This document shows positions 11,781 to 18,934 of a stretch of DNA of 30,377 nucleotides, piece after piece. The DNA is from Promethearchaeota archaeon (lineage in GTDB: Archaea > Asgardarchaeota > Lokiarchaeia > Sigyniarchaeales > SOKP01). The DNA lies in contig JBHLPW010000056.1 of assembly GCA_048939015.1 (NCBI GenBank), positions 1-30,377 of the forward strand, written 5' to 3'. The translations under genes were made by a program, and so were the position numbers. The first letter of the stretch is position 1. Each line of letters begins with the position of its first letter. The notes under the pieces are model-generated. The model was not told the DNA's origin, did no database searches, and saw nothing but the letters and a program-made list of their open reading frames with translations.

Positions 11781-12716
11781 TTATTTATTTGAGAAGTATG
11801 CATCTGAAATACTTTTTAACATGAGATCCATTTCAGAATTTACATTAATAATATCTCCAGAGTTTTTTAATTCATTTATATCTTTTAAATGATAATAGAA
11901 ATAAGGAATAAGAAGAACAGTTAAAGAAAGTATCGATACACTAATATTTGGAAAAAATTCTAAGATTGTAGGGCTATTAAAAAACAAGGGGATGAAAGTT
12001 GTTGTTATTGTTATAAAATAACCTACGATTTCTATAGTTTTTAATGTTGGTTTTAAATATTTCTCAAATCTCTCAATTCTTTGATTTAAACTAACTAACT
12101 CTTCACTTATTTCATTAAGAGATTTCTTTATTATGTAATGATTACTAAGAAAGACCAATTGTGGTTGAATTGATTTTAACCATTTTTTAAAAGGCATGCA
12201 CTTTCTTTTTATTCTATCAATTCTAATGTATGTCGTAAACATGATCGTTAAAACAGTCGTAATTGTTGAGCGAATTTGCCAGTAACCAGAGAATTCTGTT
12301 AAGTTTGGATTTAAGAAAATTAGAATAACTGTCAGAATAAAAAGAAGATATATGACTATTCTAACTATTTTGATAGAAATCATTCTATACCTCAAACGCT
12401 TATATTTTAAAAGTAGAATTTCATAGAAATCCATTTTTAAATTAATAAATAAAGTGATTTTTTTGAGAGTTGAGATAATATTCACCTTGCTAAGTGAATC
12501 TTTCGTTATAGATTTCATATTAAAATTAGCAAATACTTTATCTTCGTAAGTAAAACTCCATGTCATTAGCGGTAATATAATTAGACTTAATAAAATCCAA
12601 GGAGAGGAGAAATAAATTGAAGAAATGAACACGATTATTGTTAAAATAAGAAAAATGATTATCACCCATAATCCGCTGATTACTTTTTTATTTAACCAGA
12701 CATTAATTTGTTTCAA
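11781..12716 (-). CDS. Hypothetical multi-pass membrane protein (three TM hairpins plus a coiled coil)
   Basis: 311-aa ORF with a TTG start, paired hydrophobic helices and a LNEISEELVSLNQRIERFE coiled-coil-like segment. Confidence 0.6.
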   Translation of the reverse strand: MKQINVWLNKKVISGLWVIIIFLILTIIVFISSIYFSSPWILLSLIILPLMTWSFTYEDKVFANFNMKSITKDSLSKVNIISTLKKITLFINLKMDFYEILLLKYKRLRYRMISIKIVRIVIYLLFILTVILIFLNPNLTEFSGYWQIRSTITTVLTIMFTTYIRIDRIKRKCMPFKKWLKSIQPQLVFLSNHYIIKKSLNEISEELVSLNQRIERFEKYLKPTLKTIEIVGYFITITTTFIPLFFNSPTILEFFPNISVSILSLTVLLIPYFYYHLKDINELKNSGDIINVNSEMDLMLKSISDAYFSNK

Positions 12717-12832: not shown

Positions 12833-14806
12833 TTAATCCATAAAAGGATAATAATTAATTGTCTGTATTAAGTAATGTTCTCCAGTAGCACCATTAATGA
12901 CTAATCCTAACCGATTCTCTAATTGAGTAAGTATTTGCCGTTCGAAAGAATCTTCAGAAAAAAGAGCGTTATTGGGATAATCTTCTCTAAAAATAATCTT
13001 AATACTTGGTTGAGAAACCACATCATCAAACAAACGAGCGGGAGATTGGTCTGCTATAACGAATCCAACACCGCGACTTCGATACTCTTTCAGCAATTCT
13101 GAGAATATTTTTGCCATTTGCTCTTTCATGATAAAGTCCGCGTCATCGCTATTTGTCGTAATCGGCTTCTCTAAAATGGCATGAGCTTCATCAATGACAA
13201 TAAGATATTTTAAATCTTCCGCTTCACTATCTTTCGTAAGTGTTCTTAGGAGTTGAAAAATTACGTTTACAATGAGCATTTTCACAAATTTGCTACACAT
13301 AGATAAATCAAGAAATATATTTTCACCATTTAACCAACTATCGACCCATTCTGGCAGGTCTTCGTTTATTTTCAGCACTTTTTGAATTTTTTCCTCATCA
13401 AAAACATTCATTCGATTTCTGAACACTTGTAATAAATTAGCTTGTTCTTCTGGACCGTATGGATTATTCTTAATATAGGTTTCTACACCCTTAAGTAGAC
13501 CAATGAAGTACTCAGGTAATTCATTTTTTAATTCTAAAAAACCCACTTCAGTACGATAGATAATTTTTTCGAAGACATTTTTCAAGCCTAGTGACGCACA
13601 TATATAAGTAGCAGTCTCTTCTAATCGCTTCTTTAAGGTTTCTCTTTTGGTTTTAGTGAAGTATGGAATTTGAAAATCCATATCAGAATATTTTATTTTC
13701 TTGAAATTACGATGAAAAATCTCTTGAGACTCTTTCGCAACATTTAGTACTAAAATCCCTGCTTTTTTTGATTTTTGAGCAAGTTCTTGGATGAACCGAG
13801 TAAGAAAGTATGTTTTCCCGCTTCCAGATTTTCCAAATATAGCCATATCTTGAGGAAGTTTATTGATTGGAACAAAAGTCTCATGTTTAGTTATCACCCC
13901 ATTTTTGATATGATAACCAACTGTGATCGCTTTTTTCTTAAATTTATTATGAATATCAATATATCTAACATTCTCATTTTTCAAAATCGGAAGTCGAGGC
14001 AAAGGGAGATCTTCTGGAAAATCGAAATTCACATCCTCCTGCACAAAATTTCTCAAAGACTCACTCCCATCATTAAATACACTCCCTTCCAATATATCTA
14101 AATTTGACACTCCTGAGGGATTAATAACTTTCGCACGATACCCCATTTCATTCTCAATTTCCATAGATAAAAACTGAATTTCTCCTTCAAGCTTAGCTTT
14201 CTCTTCCACATTAGAGTTATCCAAATCTGATTTAATAAAGACTCTGATATTAAATAACTTCGATTGCTCTTGAGACATCTCCGAACGAGGTTCTCTCTGC
14301 CATAAAATAATTAATTGGGTCGTGTGGGCTGTTTTATGGTAAAACGCGCTAATATATCGCTCAATAATATTAATTTTGTTTTTAATATACCCCATTGGTA
14401 AGACAATCTCAAACAATTGGTCTTTATTCAATATTTCTTGACTATTCTCTTCAATTGGCTTCGCTTCAATGACTCCATCCAATCCAACGAATTTAAACCT
14501 TAGATTTGAAAGCCAAGCATGACCTGATCTAAGAGCATCTATTTTTGATGCTTCTGTTGTGAAAAAGACAACCTCAATATTATCATTCGCCGTTAATTCA
14601 AGACCATATACCCCAGGAGGATTGTTTCCAAATGGATCATAAAGGAAAGATCTAATATCCTCATGCTTCTGATAAAAAGGTACTGCTGACTCAGGTACCT
14701 CTTGAGGTTCGAATAACTCTGGTGCTTGGGTTATATGAATACGAGTCTGCCAAAATAAGATACCATGGTTATCTTCCACTTTATCCCCCTTCACTATACC
14801 CTTCAT
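12833..14806 (-). CDS. HerA/VirB4-like P-loop ATPase with an uncharacterised N-terminal domain (probable true start GTG 14779)
   Basis: DMAIFGKSGSGKT (Walker A), LIVIDEAH (Walker B), EYRSRGVGFVIADQSP. The GTG at 14779 sits 1 nt after the upstream stop and is preceded by GGGGGA. Confidence 0.85.
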   Translation of the reverse strand: MKGIVKGDKVEDNHGILFWQTRIHITQAPELFEPQEVPESAVPFYQKHEDIRSFLYDPFGNNPPGVYGLELTANDNIEVVFFTTEASKIDALRSGHAWLSNLRFKFVGLDGVIEAKPIEENSQEILNKDQLFEIVLPMGYIKNKINIIERYISAFYHKTAHTTQLIILWQREPRSEMSQEQSKLFNIRVFIKSDLDNSNVEEKAKLEGEIQFLSMEIENEMGYRAKVINPSGVSNLDILEGSVFNDGSESLRNFVQEDVNFDFPEDLPLPRLPILKNENVRYIDIHNKFKKKAITVGYHIKNGVITKHETFVPINKLPQDMAIFGKSGSGKTYFLTRFIQELAQKSKKAGILVLNVAKESQEIFHRNFKKIKYSDMDFQIPYFTKTKRETLKKRLEETATYICASLGLKNVFEKIIYRTEVGFLELKNELPEYFIGLLKGVETYIKNNPYGPEEQANLLQVFRNRMNVFDEEKIQKVLKINEDLPEWVDSWLNGENIFLDLSMCSKFVKMLIVNVIFQLLRTLTKDSEAEDLKYLIVIDEAHAILEKPITTNSDDADFIMKEQMAKIFSELLKEYRSRGVGFVIADQSPARLFDDVVSQPSIKIIFREDYPNNALFSEDSFERQILTQLENRLGLVINGATGEHYLIQTINYYPFMD

Positions 14807-14990
14807 CTACATAGTCATAATCCTTCCCTTCCTCACTCGAAGGCTCATCAATTCCGTCGAAATCCCTTCCATCACTTCCAGGTTCCTCGCCTAATCCTTC
14901 AAACTCCTCATGTCCTCCTTCTGAAGGCTCATCGATTCCTTGGTAGTCATTTGATTCTTCCCCAGAACATTTGTCAATACCATCATAATC
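14781..14990 (-). repeat. Five 14-aa acidic C-terminal repeats (consensus D[YF]xGIDE)
   Basis: DYDGIDKCSGEESN / DYQGIDEPSEGGHE / EFEGLGEEPGSDGR / DFDGIDEPSSEEGK / DYDYVDEGYSEGG*. Confidence 0.8.
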
Positions 14991-16832
14991 CTTTGCTTGT
15001 TTCGCAACATTTTTTGGATCGTATACACTTCGATATTCTGGTTCATTAAGATGCCACTCATCGACCAACACTCTTCCCCCTTCTGTTTTATCTTTCGGAG
15101 TTTTTTGTGGAGCATCTCCGGGGATCAATGTTTTGACTTCTCCTGGAGTATGTTCAGGTGCTAACCCGCTAGTTTCAAATGAGTGGTTATTTATATTTGC
15201 TTCAGAGGGAACATCCTCTTGTTTTTCAAGAGGCTCTTGACCCTCCCCTGTTAATGATTCCTCTTGAATCTCATCAGACTCTTCTTCTGTCGATAATGCA
15301 GGGTTTTCTTCTGATATATCCTTCCCTTCTTCCTGTGCTGACTCCTTCTCATTTTCTTCAGAAGATTTTTTCTTCTCTTCTTCCTCTTCATGCTCTTGTA
15401 TAGGGTGTTTTTCAGGGCCTTCAGGTTTTGTATCTGATGTTTGCTTCTCATCCTGCTTTTCAGCATTCCGTTCGTCAATATCTCTTGCAACATCATCAAG
15501 GTTCTTATCCTTGAGATACTCCTTTGCTTCCGTATAATTTTTAACTCCATACTCGCCTAACATCTCCTTAATTTTATTATTTATTATCTTCGCATCCATC
15601 CCATATTTATGATCAATTTCATTCTTTTGTAAATTTTGGATATCTTCTAAAAATTCTCGCTTATCTTGAATTTCTGATTTACCCTCATATTTCTCGGTTT
15701 GATTACTCAACCTCTCATTTATGTCCTTTACCACATCGTCAAGATTTTTTTCCTTTAGATATTCTTTTGCTTCTGTATAATTCTTAACACCATGTTCTCC
15801 AAACATTTCACGTATTCTTTTATTTACTGTAGTTCTATTCATACCATATTTTTGTGCAAGCTCTTTATTGGACAGATTTTGAATATCTTTAAGAAATTCT
15901 TGTTTATTATCGATCTCCTTTTTCACTCCAGATTTGTCAGGTTGATTGCGCATCCTCTCATTGATATCCTTAAGAACCTCATCAAGGTTTTTGCCTTCAA
16001 GATATTTCTTAGCTTGGGAAAAATTATTTACTCCTCGATGCCCCAGCATTTCTTTAATTCTTCTATTCATACATTTCCCATCTATATCATGTTTTTCGTT
16101 TAAATCCTTTTTTTTCATCTCTTGGATATCATTGAGAAATTCTCTTTTATCGGTGATTTCTCTCCTTCCGTTTGCCCGTGAATTGAACTGCCTTTTGCGA
16201 TATTTATATTCTTGCCATTTATTTGTTACCCCTTTACTTACATTATCTTGATATTTTTGATCTTTCCATTTATCTGATAATGATTGACTCATTTTGTCTA
16301 GAGTTTCTGGATTTCTTGCTATCTCTTGATTTACTTCAGTCATCTTATTAAGCCATTCTGGATCTTTAGCTCTCGCTTGTCTTTCTTTAATCTGCTTTTC
16401 TTGATATTCAAGATCATATTGCCATTTTTCTAATCCTCTTTCACTTAAGTATTCTTTTAACCTCTCGCTTAATCTACCTCCTCGACCCCCCTCTCTCATA
16501 TTATATCCTTTATCTGGATTCATTGTATCATATTTAATTATATTATCATCTTCTTTTCTATCCAATTCCTCTTGATTCTTCGCGACATCTTCCGTTTTTA
16601 ATTTAAAGTTCTCTTCTCCGTGCTTAATAACAGCATTTTCTATATAACGACGTTTTTCTCCTCTTTTTTGTTTGGCAAAACCCTCTTGAATCTCTTCTTT
16701 CCAACGTTCTTCTATAGGAATCTTATCATCTGCCCAACGACTTGAAACCGTCTGTCCTATATAATTCTTTCCATTTTTTATATTGGTAGCTCGATAAATA
16801 TAACCATAGGGCTTTTCTTGATTTTTAACCAT
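14781..16832 (-). CDS. GIY-YIG endonuclease with 17-aa helical repeats, three 81-aa HTH-like repeats and an acidic repetitive tail
   Basis: YGYIYRATNIKNGKNYIGQT...EERW...LDRKE...GYNMREGG forms a GIY-YIG module. The repeats are visible in both protein and DNA. Confidence 0.85.
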   Translation of the reverse strand: MVKNQEKPYGYIYRATNIKNGKNYIGQTVSSRWADDKIPIEERWKEEIQEGFAKQKRGEKRRYIENAVIKHGEENFKLKTEDVAKNQEELDRKEDDNIIKYDTMNPDKGYNMREGGRGGRLSERLKEYLSERGLEKWQYDLEYQEKQIKERQARAKDPEWLNKMTEVNQEIARNPETLDKMSQSLSDKWKDQKYQDNVSKGVTNKWQEYKYRKRQFNSRANGRREITDKREFLNDIQEMKKKDLNEKHDIDGKCMNRRIKEMLGHRGVNNFSQAKKYLEGKNLDEVLKDINERMRNQPDKSGVKKEIDNKQEFLKDIQNLSNKELAQKYGMNRTTVNKRIREMFGEHGVKNYTEAKEYLKEKNLDDVVKDINERLSNQTEKYEGKSEIQDKREFLEDIQNLQKNEIDHKYGMDAKIINNKIKEMLGEYGVKNYTEAKEYLKDKNLDDVARDIDERNAEKQDEKQTSDTKPEGPEKHPIQEHEEEEEKKKSSEENEKESAQEEGKDISEENPALSTEEESDEIQEESLTGEGQEPLEKQEDVPSEANINNHSFETSGLAPEHTPGEVKTLIPGDAPQKTPKDKTEGGRVLVDEWHLNEPEYRSVYDPKNVAKQAKDYDGIDKCSGEESNDYQGIDEPSEGGHEEFEGLGEEPGSDGRDFDGIDEPSSEEGKDYDYVDEGYSEGG
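15468..16160 (-). repeat. Three tandem 243-bp (81-aa) coding repeats
   Basis: Units start at 16160 (EITDKREFL), 15917 (EIDNKQEFL) and 15674 (EIQDKREFL), an exact 243-nt period. Shared motifs include GVKNYTEAKEYL and KNLDDV. Confidence 0.9.
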
Positions 16833-17036
16833 TTTTGAATATCAATTTTTAAGATAGGTTTAGATACAAGTATTTAAACTTCAATTGTGAGGAAGAAACT
16901 CCAAAATAGCACTAATGAAAGAAATTTTTGTTTAAATAGTCACATCCATAAAATTAATAAGAAATTAGAAAATAGGAGTTGATGTAAAATTTCAGAAAAT
17001 CATATAAAAGATAGAAAAAAAGTAAACCCACCATAT

Positions 17037-17213
17037 ATGAGTATAGAGGAAATAATTAAATTACTGGCTGATATTAGAGTTGATTTGAACGAATTAAAGA
17101 AATCCGTCACATCGAAAGAAATTAAAGAACAACTTAAGTGGGCACTTAACGGAATAGATATTATTGGCTGTGAATTAACCCAAAATATAGCTAAAAAATT
17201 AAAAGAAAAATAG
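17037..17213 (+). CDS. Small hypothetical helical protein (58 aa)
   Basis: ATG 17037 to TAG 17213 encodes MSIEEIIKLLADIRVDLNELKKSVTSKEIKEQLKWALNGIDIIGCELTQNIAKKLKEK, with an amphipathic pattern. Below the ORF-track length cutoff. Confidence 0.45.
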   Translation: MSIEEIIKLLADIRVDLNELKKSVTSKEIKEQLKWALNGIDIIGCELTQNIAKKLKEK

Positions 17214-17245: not shown

Positions 17246-18934
17246 TCACATCATACCCGGGGGAAGACCACCCATTCCACCCATGCCACCCATACCACCG
17301 CCCATACCAGGTGGCATTCCACCAGGAGGCATTCCTGGGGGCATAGCAGATTTGGCTGATGCTATCACATCATCAATGCGGAGAATCATCGAAGTAGCTT
17401 CGGTTGAGGATTTAATTGCTTGTACTTTTACTACAGTAGGTTCGACAACTCCAACACTTGCCATATCATTGACCACTTCACCGGTGTCGAGGTCATGTCC
17501 AGCAAATTTGTTGCCTTGTTGATGAGCAGCTCTGAGTTTCATGAGAGTATCAATTTGGTCTAATCCCGCATTTTCAGCGAGAGTTTTTGGAATAATATCA
17601 AGCGAATCAGCGAAAATTTCAACAGCGAGTTGTTCACGTCCACCTAGAGTGGAGGCATATTTTCTTAACTGAATAGCAGTTTCAATTTCAGGAGCTCCAC
17701 CGCCGCCGACAAGTTTTTGATCTTCAACTACATCTCTCACTACGCAGAGAGCATCGTGAATTGCTCTTTCAACTTCATCGACGATAAGTTCAGTTCCACC
17801 TCTTATAAGAATAACGACAGATTTAGGATCTTTACATTCTTCAATGAAAATCCAAGAGTCATTCATTATTTTACGTTCTTCTACCAAACCAGCCCATCCA
17901 AGTTTTCCCGAAGCGATATCGTCAAGGTTCGTAAAGATAGTACCACCAGTTGCTTTTGAGAGTTTTTCAATATCAGATTTTTTCACTCTTCTTACGGCCA
18001 TAATACCGGCTTTTGAAAGGAAATGTTGAGCCATGTCATCAATTCCTTTTTGACAAATTACGACATTTGCTCCGGATTTTTGAATTTTTTCAACCATAGT
18101 CCTAAGCATATGTTCTTCTTCATCTAAGAATTGCTGGATTTGTTCTGGGCTTGTAATTTGGAGTTTACTATCGAATTCAGTCTTTTCAATTTCTACTGCG
18201 CTTTGTAGAAGTAAGATTTTAGCATCAGTAACGCTTTTTGGCATTCCAGGACTTACCACTTCTTTATCTAAGATAATACCTTTAATAAGTTTAGTATCAT
18301 CGATAGAATCTCCCTCTTTCTTTTGAATTTGGACTTTTCCTATGTCTGCGACATATTTTCCGTCTTCTTGTTTCTCAGTAATAGCTTTAATAGCATCCAT
18401 ACAGATTTGAGCTAACATTACTTTTGATTCTGAAACAATCTTACTGGACATACAAGTCATAGCAGCATTTTTCAGTCCTTTTTCATCTTCAATTCCACTT
18501 TTAATAGAAATACTATCAAGAATCTCAACAGCTTTTTCAGCTGCTTTTCTAAAACCTTCAGTAATCACAGTAGGATGTATTTTCTGTTCTAATAGTTTTT
18601 TAGCTCGTTTCAATAATTCTCCAGCAAGAATAACTGATGTAGTTGTACCATCACCAACTTCAGAGTCCTGAGTTTTTGCAACTTCAACCATCATTTTAGC
18701 AGCGGGGTGTTGTACATCAATTTCTTTTAGAATTGTAGCACCATCGTTTGTTATAACGACATCACCAAACTGGTCTACGAGCATTTTGTCCATACCACGG
18801 GGTCCAAGTGAAGTTCTTACAGCTTCTGCGATAACAATTGCGGCAGCGATATTGTTTGACATAGCATCTCTTCCACGTTGTCGTTCTGTACCTTCTTTCA
18901 TAATTAAGACAGGTGTTCCGCCTAATTGTGCCAT
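17246..18934 (-). CDS. ths: Thermosome subunit (group II chaperonin)
   Basis: Motifs [32 protein letters not shown] and RIDD, plus a Gly/Met/Pro-rich C-terminal tail. Confidence 0.97.

Follow-up and report, generated by a model that had tools for sequence, protein, structure and literature searches.

We wanted to know whether two adjoining genes of a Promethearchaeota archaeon, one for a GIY-YIG nuclease and one for a HerA/VirB4-like ATPase, encode parts of a single system, and what such a system would do. The genes lie on the minus strand of contig JBHLPW010000056.1 (assembly GCA_048939015.1), whose 30,377 nt, analysed here as a whole, are called the window. A preliminary description of this DNA had proposed a nuclease-motor module serving either defence or the mobilisation of an element. 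The module is still the best reading of the locus: the pair is conserved, co-oriented and overlapping. Our analysis suggests that the genes form one operon and that their products act together on DNA, most likely in conflict with invading DNA; we give this full reading about an even chance of being correct. Genomes, contigs and loci used for comparison are cited by our own labels (G, C and L numbers).

The GIY-YIG gene (14781..16832, minus strand; 683 aa) was defined from its open reading frame (ORF) and its homologs. The ATPase gene (12833..14806, minus strand) encodes 657 aa when read from the ATG at 14806 and 648 aa when read from the GTG at 14779. Direct reading of the junction (14777..14806, minus strand) showed that the GIY-YIG gene ends with TAA at 14783-14781 and that the GTG at 14779-14777, preceded by the purine-rich GAAGGGGGA, opens the ATPase frame 1 nt past this stop. 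The in-frame ATG upstream of the GTG would make the genes overlap by 26 nt. The preliminary description had read this junction exactly. Both the public gene call (648 aa) and the N-termini of 38 homologs are in line with GTG as the start. In front of the ATPase gene there is no space comparable to that before the GIY-YIG gene, where TTTAAATA (16871..16878, minus strand), 38 nt upstream of the GIY-YIG ATG, is a candidate archaeal TATA box. A scan for bacterial-type promoters and terminators gave fewer sites than in shuffled sequences, its model being uninformative for an archaeon. A thermosome gene (17246-18934; Cpn60_TCP1, E 2e-186) lies on the same strand, 413 nt upstream of the GIY-YIG gene.

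The order thermosome, GIY-YIG, ATPase was found in 10 genomes of 4 genera, all in one Promethearchaeia family, and two more loci at contig edges hold the GIY-YIG tail and the ATPase. The junction is tight in eight triads (G000, G156, G203, G279, G256, G274, G270 and SCS4bin.30; G279 was read at DNA level only), where the distance from the GIY-YIG stop to the conserved N-terminus of the ATPase is approximately 20-45 nt. In six of the eight the ATPase frame extends back into the 3' end of the GIY-YIG gene; candidate start codons therefore lie inside that gene, and in several triads they are the sole candidates. Gaps of approximately 90-240 nt were observed at four further loci. The genes downstream of the pair vary between genomes, and only the thermosome and GIY-YIG genes are conserved neighbours.

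The catalytic domain of the nuclease, of I-TevI/Seg type, spans aa 8-120 (16473..16811, minus strand). Pfam, run on the whole protein, listed no GIY-YIG family among its matches, and SegE_GIY-YIG, seen with aa 1-131 only, stayed below its cut-off (E 7e-4, 20.2 bits against 25). However weak in Pfam, the earlier GIY-YIG assignment was upheld by other evidence. Homing-endonuclease families of PHROG matched the protein over aa 9-360 (PHROG 7168, 3e-14; PHROG 314, 6e-12), and a profile of 34 homologs matched the I-TevI catalytic domain (1ln0, E 1.3e-4). YIY stands at aa 11-13 and YIG at aa 24-26, and among the 34 homologs G10, I12, Y13, Y24 and G26 are invariant. R43 is kept in at least 90% of these sequences, and E94 and N111 in all; in the 1ln0 match the three residues align with R27, E75 and N90 of I-TevI. 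W44, G109 and Y110 are invariant or nearly so. At the sequence level, the PHROG and 1ln0 matches and the conserved residues confirmed that the enzyme belongs to the I-TevI/Seg-type homing-endonuclease class. All of the 78 homologs found are Asgard-labelled, and several carry PF01541; the nuclease domain alone has relatives in at least 358 viral contigs.

Behind the catalytic domain there is a helical linker with short repeats (aa ~125-215; 16188..16460, minus strand), which is kept in the family consensus and lies inside the PHROG homing-endonuclease match. It is followed by three helix-turn-helix (HTH) modules of approximately 85 aa each (aa ~216-470; 15423..16187, minus strand), recognized by their mutual similarity (55-56% pairwise identity) and by weak HTH_24/AsnC-type matches in Pfam at aa 319-343. 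The repeats show at the protein level only, as no tandem repeat was found in the DNA of the gene. The C-terminal region (aa 471-683; 14784..15422, minus strand) is acidic and of low complexity, with 67 D+E against 19 K+R, and has no Pfam family match. Its end carries five acidic-aromatic motifs with 14-aa spacing (aa 615-676; 14784..14990, minus strand): DYDGID, DYQGID, EFEGLG, DFDGID and DYDYVD. Four of these D[YF]xG[IV]D-type motifs were found by a motif scan and the fifth by eye. Most long homologs have one to five copies. As far as its sequence tells, the protein comprises an entire homing-type endonuclease, to which two further HTH modules and a tail are added. The GIY-YIG and HTH part is found also in larger proteins (810-1,238 aa; L078 2368-4800, L079 2015-4483, L201 5541-9257), in their C-terminal half and behind an unassigned N-terminal region.

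The ATPase, for which 92 homologs were found, consists of a family-specific N-terminal domain (aa ~10-290; 13937..14779, minus strand) and an FtsK-HerA superfamily motor domain (aa ~291-657; 12836..13936, minus strand). DUF87 of Pfam matched it with 31.9 bits, above the cut-off of 23.2. Walker A (GKSGSGKT, aa 325-332; 13811..13834, minus strand) and Walker B (VIDEAH, aa 537-542; 13181..13198, minus strand) had been described as intact, and we observed that G325, G328, G330, K331 and T332 of the former and I538, D539, E540 and H542 of the latter are invariant. R576/R578 and Q587 are conserved in the homolog alignment and, by their position, are candidates for the arginine finger and the sensor. 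The HerA equivalog models failed widely (HerA_antiphage 39 bits against 800, helicase_HerA 25.6 against 970, HerA_Thermprot 24.8 against 800), and no VirB4 family appeared among the listed Pfam or NCBIfam matches.

We compared an AlphaFold2 monomer model of the ATPase (predicted local distance difference test score, pLDDT, 83.6) with known structures. The motor (model residues ~288-654) matched the C-terminal domain of DndH best (7es4; Z 29.5, root-mean-square deviation (rmsd) 3.1, 323 residues, model 288-650), followed by VirB4 (4ag6, Z 25.8), HerA (8xau, Z 25.0) and TrwB (Z 22.8); HerA proteins of defence and repair complexes matched at Z 22-25. The preliminary description could not assign the N-terminal domain of approximately 290 aa. 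Its first 289 aa, scanned alone, had no Pfam match, and the Pfam and NCBIfam matches of the full-length protein start at about aa 255-306. The best fold match of this domain (folded alone, pLDDT 81) among 48,161 chains was TrwK/VirB4 (7o42_A; rmsd 4.1, 219 residues), with a Z of 10.5 that is only moderate, 4% identity and a next match at Z 8.8. A few HerA structure alignments extend to model residue 27-108, but the best match is VirB4, not the HAS barrel. The domain was found in just 73 representative clusters among 1.84 billion, whose full-length members mostly have the length of the ATPase (~630-1,080 aa). Foldseek with the N-terminal domain alone gave only weak sheet-type matches to BBE-like oxidases, and ESM Atlas gave unnamed clusters and no usable lead. 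The motor fold matches, the failed equivalogs and the VirB4-like N-terminal domain together indicate that, on sequence and modelled fold, the ATPase is a VirB4/HerA-like member of the FtsK-HerA superfamily and an orthologue of no named family. The earlier HerA/VirB4-like label is thus upheld at the fold level. The protein would act as a ring-type, DNA-translocating motor.

The fate of the acidic tail points to a link between the two genes. The D[YF]xG[IV]D tail is present in the triads of genera g1 and g4 that have the ATPase, and in variant form in G274 and G270. It is down to one motif in G229 and present in G283, where the ATPase has relocated. The tail is absent in G019, where no ATPase was found, in G159, whose ATPase is split by a stop, and in the G215 remnant. 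Diverged GIY-YIG paralogs, some containing stops, occur in other contexts of the genomes, and every one that does not adjoin the ATPase lacks the tail. The preliminary description had named GIY-YIG homologs in random contexts without this ATPase as evidence against the module; such evidence exists in part, but for these tailless diverged paralogs only.

Further, the gene in front of the ATPase is a different one in a subclade of 63-64% identity (G212 and metagenome locus L198): its product is unrelated to the nuclease, yet has a long acidic C-terminal tail with a similar aromatic-GG end (DDYPGG/E). In G212 this alternative partner is full length, with 1,070 aa and DNA-binding repeats. Among remote relatives the order can be reversed: at L201 the ATPase comes first and the 1,238-aa GIY-YIG-containing protein follows after 5 nt, and at L043 a 193-aa ORF stands between the ATPase and the GIY-YIG gene behind it. 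The metagenome scan yielded 4 useful loci. The partners of ATPase paralogs of 25-40% identity have no acidic tails. We did not observe the thermosome gene followed by the ATPase gene without the nuclease in any locus, and ATPase-only copies all lie elsewhere; the nuclease is therefore unlike an insertion between pre-existing neighbours. Six lines of evidence in the sequences point to two proteins that are functionally linked, not merely adjacent. Docking of the tail on the N-terminal domain of the ATPase by simple charge found no support: that domain has a net charge of -13, and orthologs and paralogs do not differ systematically in this respect. The 63% form is a three-gene unit (L177 1663-8047 in G212; L198 2-2808) of acidic-tailed partner, ATPase and coiled-coil protein. 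Its 1,070-aa protein has homing-endonuclease-associated repeats and a Pro/Glu-rich acidic tail, and the ORF of its 369-aa coiled-coil protein has a 4-nt overlap with the end of the ATPase gene.

The ATPase family was found in 15 of the 40 genomes of the window's own family and in none of approximately 160 genomes from other sampled families of the phylum; its orthologs (at least 53% identity) occur in approximately 15 species-level genomes. Within its own genus most genomes lack the pair, and in some genomes it is pseudogenised. In at least 10 genomes of this genus the thermosome ortholog is followed by unrelated genes. At all 13 loci where the upstream flank of a GIY-YIG ortholog is known, the thermosome gene is its immediate upstream neighbour, and this holds also for the three that have no ATPase. 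On the thermosome tree all outgroup genera have the GIY-YIG gene, and its presence within the genus is scattered, with at least three changes. G222 keeps the intergenic region and approximately 50 nt homologous to the GIY-YIG 5' end, G215 has a remnant of 240 aa, and in G283 the sequence behind the GIY-YIG gene weakly matches (33 aa, E 0.002) the N-terminus of the ATPase, which is encoded elsewhere in that genome. ATPase divergence tracks thermosome divergence (r 0.84), which argues for vertical inheritance, whereas defence islands are typically mobile. The rate of evolution of the nuclease is 2-3 times that of the ATPase, and between some closely related genomes the nuclease gene differs far more than its flanks do (G156 and G203: GIY-YIG d 0.58, ATPase d 0.13). 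From these comparisons the pair looks ancestral at the thermosome site, with at least three losses. The simplest history appears to be an old chromosomal locus that is frequently lost and whose nuclease gene turns over quickly. We also considered the site downstream of the thermosome as a general defence hotspot and found no support for this, as genomes free of the GIY-YIG gene carry FG-GAP/LVIVD surface proteins, ferredoxin and a TPR protein there.

Away from the thermosome, one relocated ATPase ortholog adjoins a complete Gabija system (GajA 5e-184, GajB 4e-221). Others have as neighbours a type II methyltransferase with a PLD nuclease and MazF, or a Cas4-like gene, and one ATPase paralog (L038, below) stands behind a SIR2-TPR gene. 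The best PADLOC matches were mad8 (1.3e-15) and defence-type HerA (2e-12). Taken together, the defence context, the patchy distribution, the pseudogenes and the quick nuclease would fit the published themes of effector-HerA complexes and of HerA/FtsK 'capture' systems, and a defence role of the pair appears plausible.

We infer a physical complex of the two proteins, translocation of DNA, a role for the tail and a function in defence. The nuclease, a GIY-YIG enzyme derived from a homing endonuclease, would locate DNA through its array of three HTH modules. The acidic tail would either dock the nuclease on the motor or mask it until the motor engages, and the motor would pump double-stranded DNA past the nuclease. 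Such a logic would be shared with DUF4297-HerA, SIR2-HerA, HerA-NurA and the 'HerA/FtsK capture' systems.

Several observations weigh against this reading. The pairing is not obligate: the synteny expected across relatives holds for the 10 genomes and 4 genera given above, but four ATPase-only and three GIY-YIG-only loci depart from it. The joint losses of tail and ATPase are few and phylogenetically clustered events, one of them in genus g2, and physical linkage could contribute to them. The N-terminal domain of the ATPase is acidic itself. No fused GIY-YIG-ATPase protein was found in a search above 1,150 aa, which is weak evidence. The site downstream of the thermosome is fixed in four genera, with vertical descent, and at this site pair-less genomes hold surface-protein genes, not defence genes. 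Moreover, an array of three sequence-reading HTH modules would be expected of a homing enzyme with a specific site more than of a nuclease aimed broadly at invaders.

An alternative is that the GIY-YIG gene is a selfish, free-standing homing endonuclease that settled downstream of the highly conserved thermosome gene as its cleavage target, and that the ATPase is a mere neighbour or hitch-hiking cargo that does not cooperate with it. We consider this unlikely, although several features speak for it. The match over aa 9-360 covers a complete phage homing-endonuclease profile, and the viral relatives of the nuclease domain belong to the same picture. All 13 orthologous GIY-YIG loci with a known flank adjoin the 3' side of the thermosome gene, the three ATPase-less ones included; diverged and stop-containing family copies lie elsewhere, as they do for homing genes; and the GIY-YIG gene diverges much faster than its flanks. 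The thermosome ends, PPGMM in most loci with the GIY-YIG gene and PPDMY in most loci without it, could mark a co-conversion tract. However, an 'empty' arrangement of thermosome followed by ATPase was not seen in any locus, and the outgroups that all have the GIY-YIG gene, the scattered losses and the G222 remnant resemble decay, not invasion. Homing has no use for a conserved acidic tail of 213 aa that disappears with loss or breakage of the ATPase. Conservation of the overlapping junction, a second type of acidic-tailed partner and reversed-order pairings also speak against a homing gene. In a WHO-like test, no relics of thermosome or ATPase 3' ends were found in this genome.

The pair might also be a chromosomal repair or recombination module, that is, a lineage-specific analogue of HerA-NurA that processes host DNA ends or a specific site. 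The fold search gave good matches to HerA-NurA structures (9x1m, Z 22.9; 7f6d, Z 22.9), and a stable chromosomal position beside a housekeeping gene, inherited vertically, would be expected of such a module. We find it improbable as the main role, because NurA and other DUF87 ATPases are encoded elsewhere in the genome (NurA above the Pfam cut-off on another contig; 10 DUF87 matches, 9 of them above the cut-off) and most relatives lack the pair. The pair is also missing from the other sampled families of the phylum and pseudogenised in some genomes, and its nuclease evolves fast, whereas repair nucleases are usually conserved.

Quite improbable is a transfer device, in which the VirB4-like ATPase would power export or import, the GIY-YIG protein would be a relaxase-like nickase and the acidic tail a recognition or translocation signal. 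Some substrates of type IV systems do carry acidic signals at the C-terminus. Both ATPase domains align to TrwK/VirB4, more than 500 residues align to full-length VirB4, and the coupling proteins TrwB and TcpA match at Z 18-23. Against these matches, the N-terminal domain reaches its Z at 4% identity only, profile searches with the sequence point to HerA/DUF87 and defence-type HerA, and viral contigs of IMG/VR yielded no member of the ATPase family. No conserved membrane, pilus, coupling-protein, integrase or other type IV secretion system (T4SS) gene accompanies the pair; the sole membrane ORF behind it (311 aa) occurs in this genome only. The locus is inherited vertically. The mobilisation of an element by relaxase-like nicking and DNA pumping, which the preliminary description had offered beside defence, found no support. 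Least probable, with only a slight chance, is that the acidic-aromatic tail is a signal read by the VirB4-like ring ATPase, which would load, unfold or move the nuclease itself, with or without DNA attached, and not just pump DNA past it; if true, the archaeal lineage closest to eukaryotes would have a minimal machine with a T4SS-like relation of substrate and motor, but with no known secretion channel.

Several further features of the locus and its relatives were observed. Between the thermosome and GIY-YIG genes, on the opposite strand, there is a 58-aa ORF (17037-17213, plus strand). Even pair-less genomes, e.g. G217, G202 and G222, keep this stretch of DNA downstream of the thermosome, and the ORF is probably a small gene in its own right. 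The 311-aa ORF (11781-12716, minus strand), which encodes several hydrophobic stretches, follows the ATPase gene after 116 nt. It has no Pfam, PADLOC or PHROG match, no second copy in the genome and no counterpart in related loci; in G171 a TPR gene directly follows the ATPase in its place. The thermosome C-terminus (17246-17395 in the window; 23 loci with the relatives) ends in PPGMM or PPDMY with exceptions both ways, and this split could reflect phylogeny as well as a co-conversion tract.

Orphan 3'-end fragments of the ATPase gene (~aa 470-652) occur a few kb downstream of full-length copies or apart from them (L074/L173 7847-8380; L198 6573-6929; L188 5001-5252; G008:C88:54646-54966; G273:C65:114106-114417). 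Some are 84-87% identical to the window ATPase, against 64-75% for the resident full gene, and in G274 a Ras-family GTPase gene stands between the ATPase gene and its fragment. The pattern resembles an exchange of 3'-end cassettes. In G256, each of the two ATPase copies has one in-frame TAG (C54:12132-13961; C128:569-2491), and the G159 copy contains one in-frame TAA (C91:39011-40985). These copies may be pseudogenes, and read-through of TAG is possible.

ATPase paralogs of 25-40% identity, up to 8 per genome (G279), occupy recurring cassettes (L039, L040, L042, L044-L047, L050). In front of them stands either a larger protein (1,274-1,279 aa) that has a second DUF87-like region or a Cas6-like protein of 289 aa. 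A protein of 950-1,673 aa follows, and the one scanned (L045) has a TFIIB repeat and weak HTH matches. At L038 (2213-7234), in an Asgard genome, the gene immediately in front of an ATPase paralog (653 aa) encodes a SIR2-TPR protein (987 aa), an arrangement of SIR2 with a HerA-like protein.

Finally, we compared the pair with known systems. Like the phage endonucleases I-TevI and Seg, the nuclease has the catalytic motifs, a linker with an HTH DNA-binding part and a position by a highly conserved gene. Unlike them, it has two extra HTH modules, the 213-aa acidic tail and an overlapping operon with a motor ATPase, and its inheritance fits ancestral presence with losses, not invasion. The ATPase appears to share with VirB4/TrwK (PDB 7o42, 4ag6) the plan of N-terminal domain and FtsK-HerA motor, both matched at the fold level, but it has no family match at the sequence level, no T4SS partner genes and no membrane context. 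It has the P-loop motor fold of FtsK-HerA and falls outside HerA at the equivalog level, for repair and anti-phage models alike. The archaeal end-resection complex HerA-NurA (PMC12977600; PDB 9x1m) is similar in that a ring motor is encoded next to a nuclease gene (Z ~23). However, the Asgard nuclease is unrelated to NurA, which is encoded elsewhere in the genome, no Mre11/Rad50 neighbours were seen in the conserved triad, and the pair is dispensable in most relatives.

Complexes of a nuclease with HerA have been published (PMC11291478), and so have 'capture' conflict systems that combine HerA/FtsK, HTH and an endoDNase (PMC10853773). The latter, including DndH of DndFGH (PMC10853773; PDB 7es4), resemble the Asgard pair in having a HerA/FtsK motor, HTH and an active endoDNase, and the DndH C-terminal domain is the single best structural match to the motor. 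In the Asgard pair, in contrast, these parts are placed on two proteins and not fused, the nuclease is of GIY-YIG type and not a restriction endonuclease, no Dnd genes lie in the window, and the characteristic N-terminal domains of DndH are absent from the ATPase. With DUF4297-HerA and SIR2-HerA (Nezha; PMC11291478; PDB 8ziq, 8j4u, 8wod) the pair shares a two-gene operon in which the effector precedes a HerA-type ring ATPase, the motor fold (Z 22-24) and an accessory, patchy distribution, and with DUF4297-HerA also a nuclease partner. The effector differs, being GIY-YIG with three HTH modules and an acidic tail and not DUF4297 or SIR2. The N-terminal domain of the ATPase is family-specific and appears VirB4-like, against a plain HAS barrel, and HerA_antiphage gives 39 bits against its cut-off of 800. 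Further, the Asgard pair is inherited vertically beside the thermosome in one Promethearchaeia family.

Our literature search found no published pair of GIY-YIG and HerA-type proteins in one system. New here are the VirB4-like N-terminal domain, the thermosome-anchored vertical history with losses, the co-retention of tail and ATPase, the swap of partner and the defence-gene context. If the tail is a coupling device, it would be a simple rule for recruiting effectors to motors, apparently reused by a second, unrelated partner. If the favoured reading of a nuclease-motor module is true, the locus would clearly exemplify how a host system takes over a selfish endonuclease. In summary, pairs of a nuclease and a ring ATPase are an emerging theme in prokaryotic immunity and DNA repair, and the solved examples in our fold searches are either bacterial (SIR2-HerA, DUF4297-HerA) or use NurA. 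The Asgard pair would follow the same plan with other parts: a domesticated homing endonuclease, a triple HTH reader, an acidic tail of several motifs and a motor with a VirB4-like N-terminal domain.

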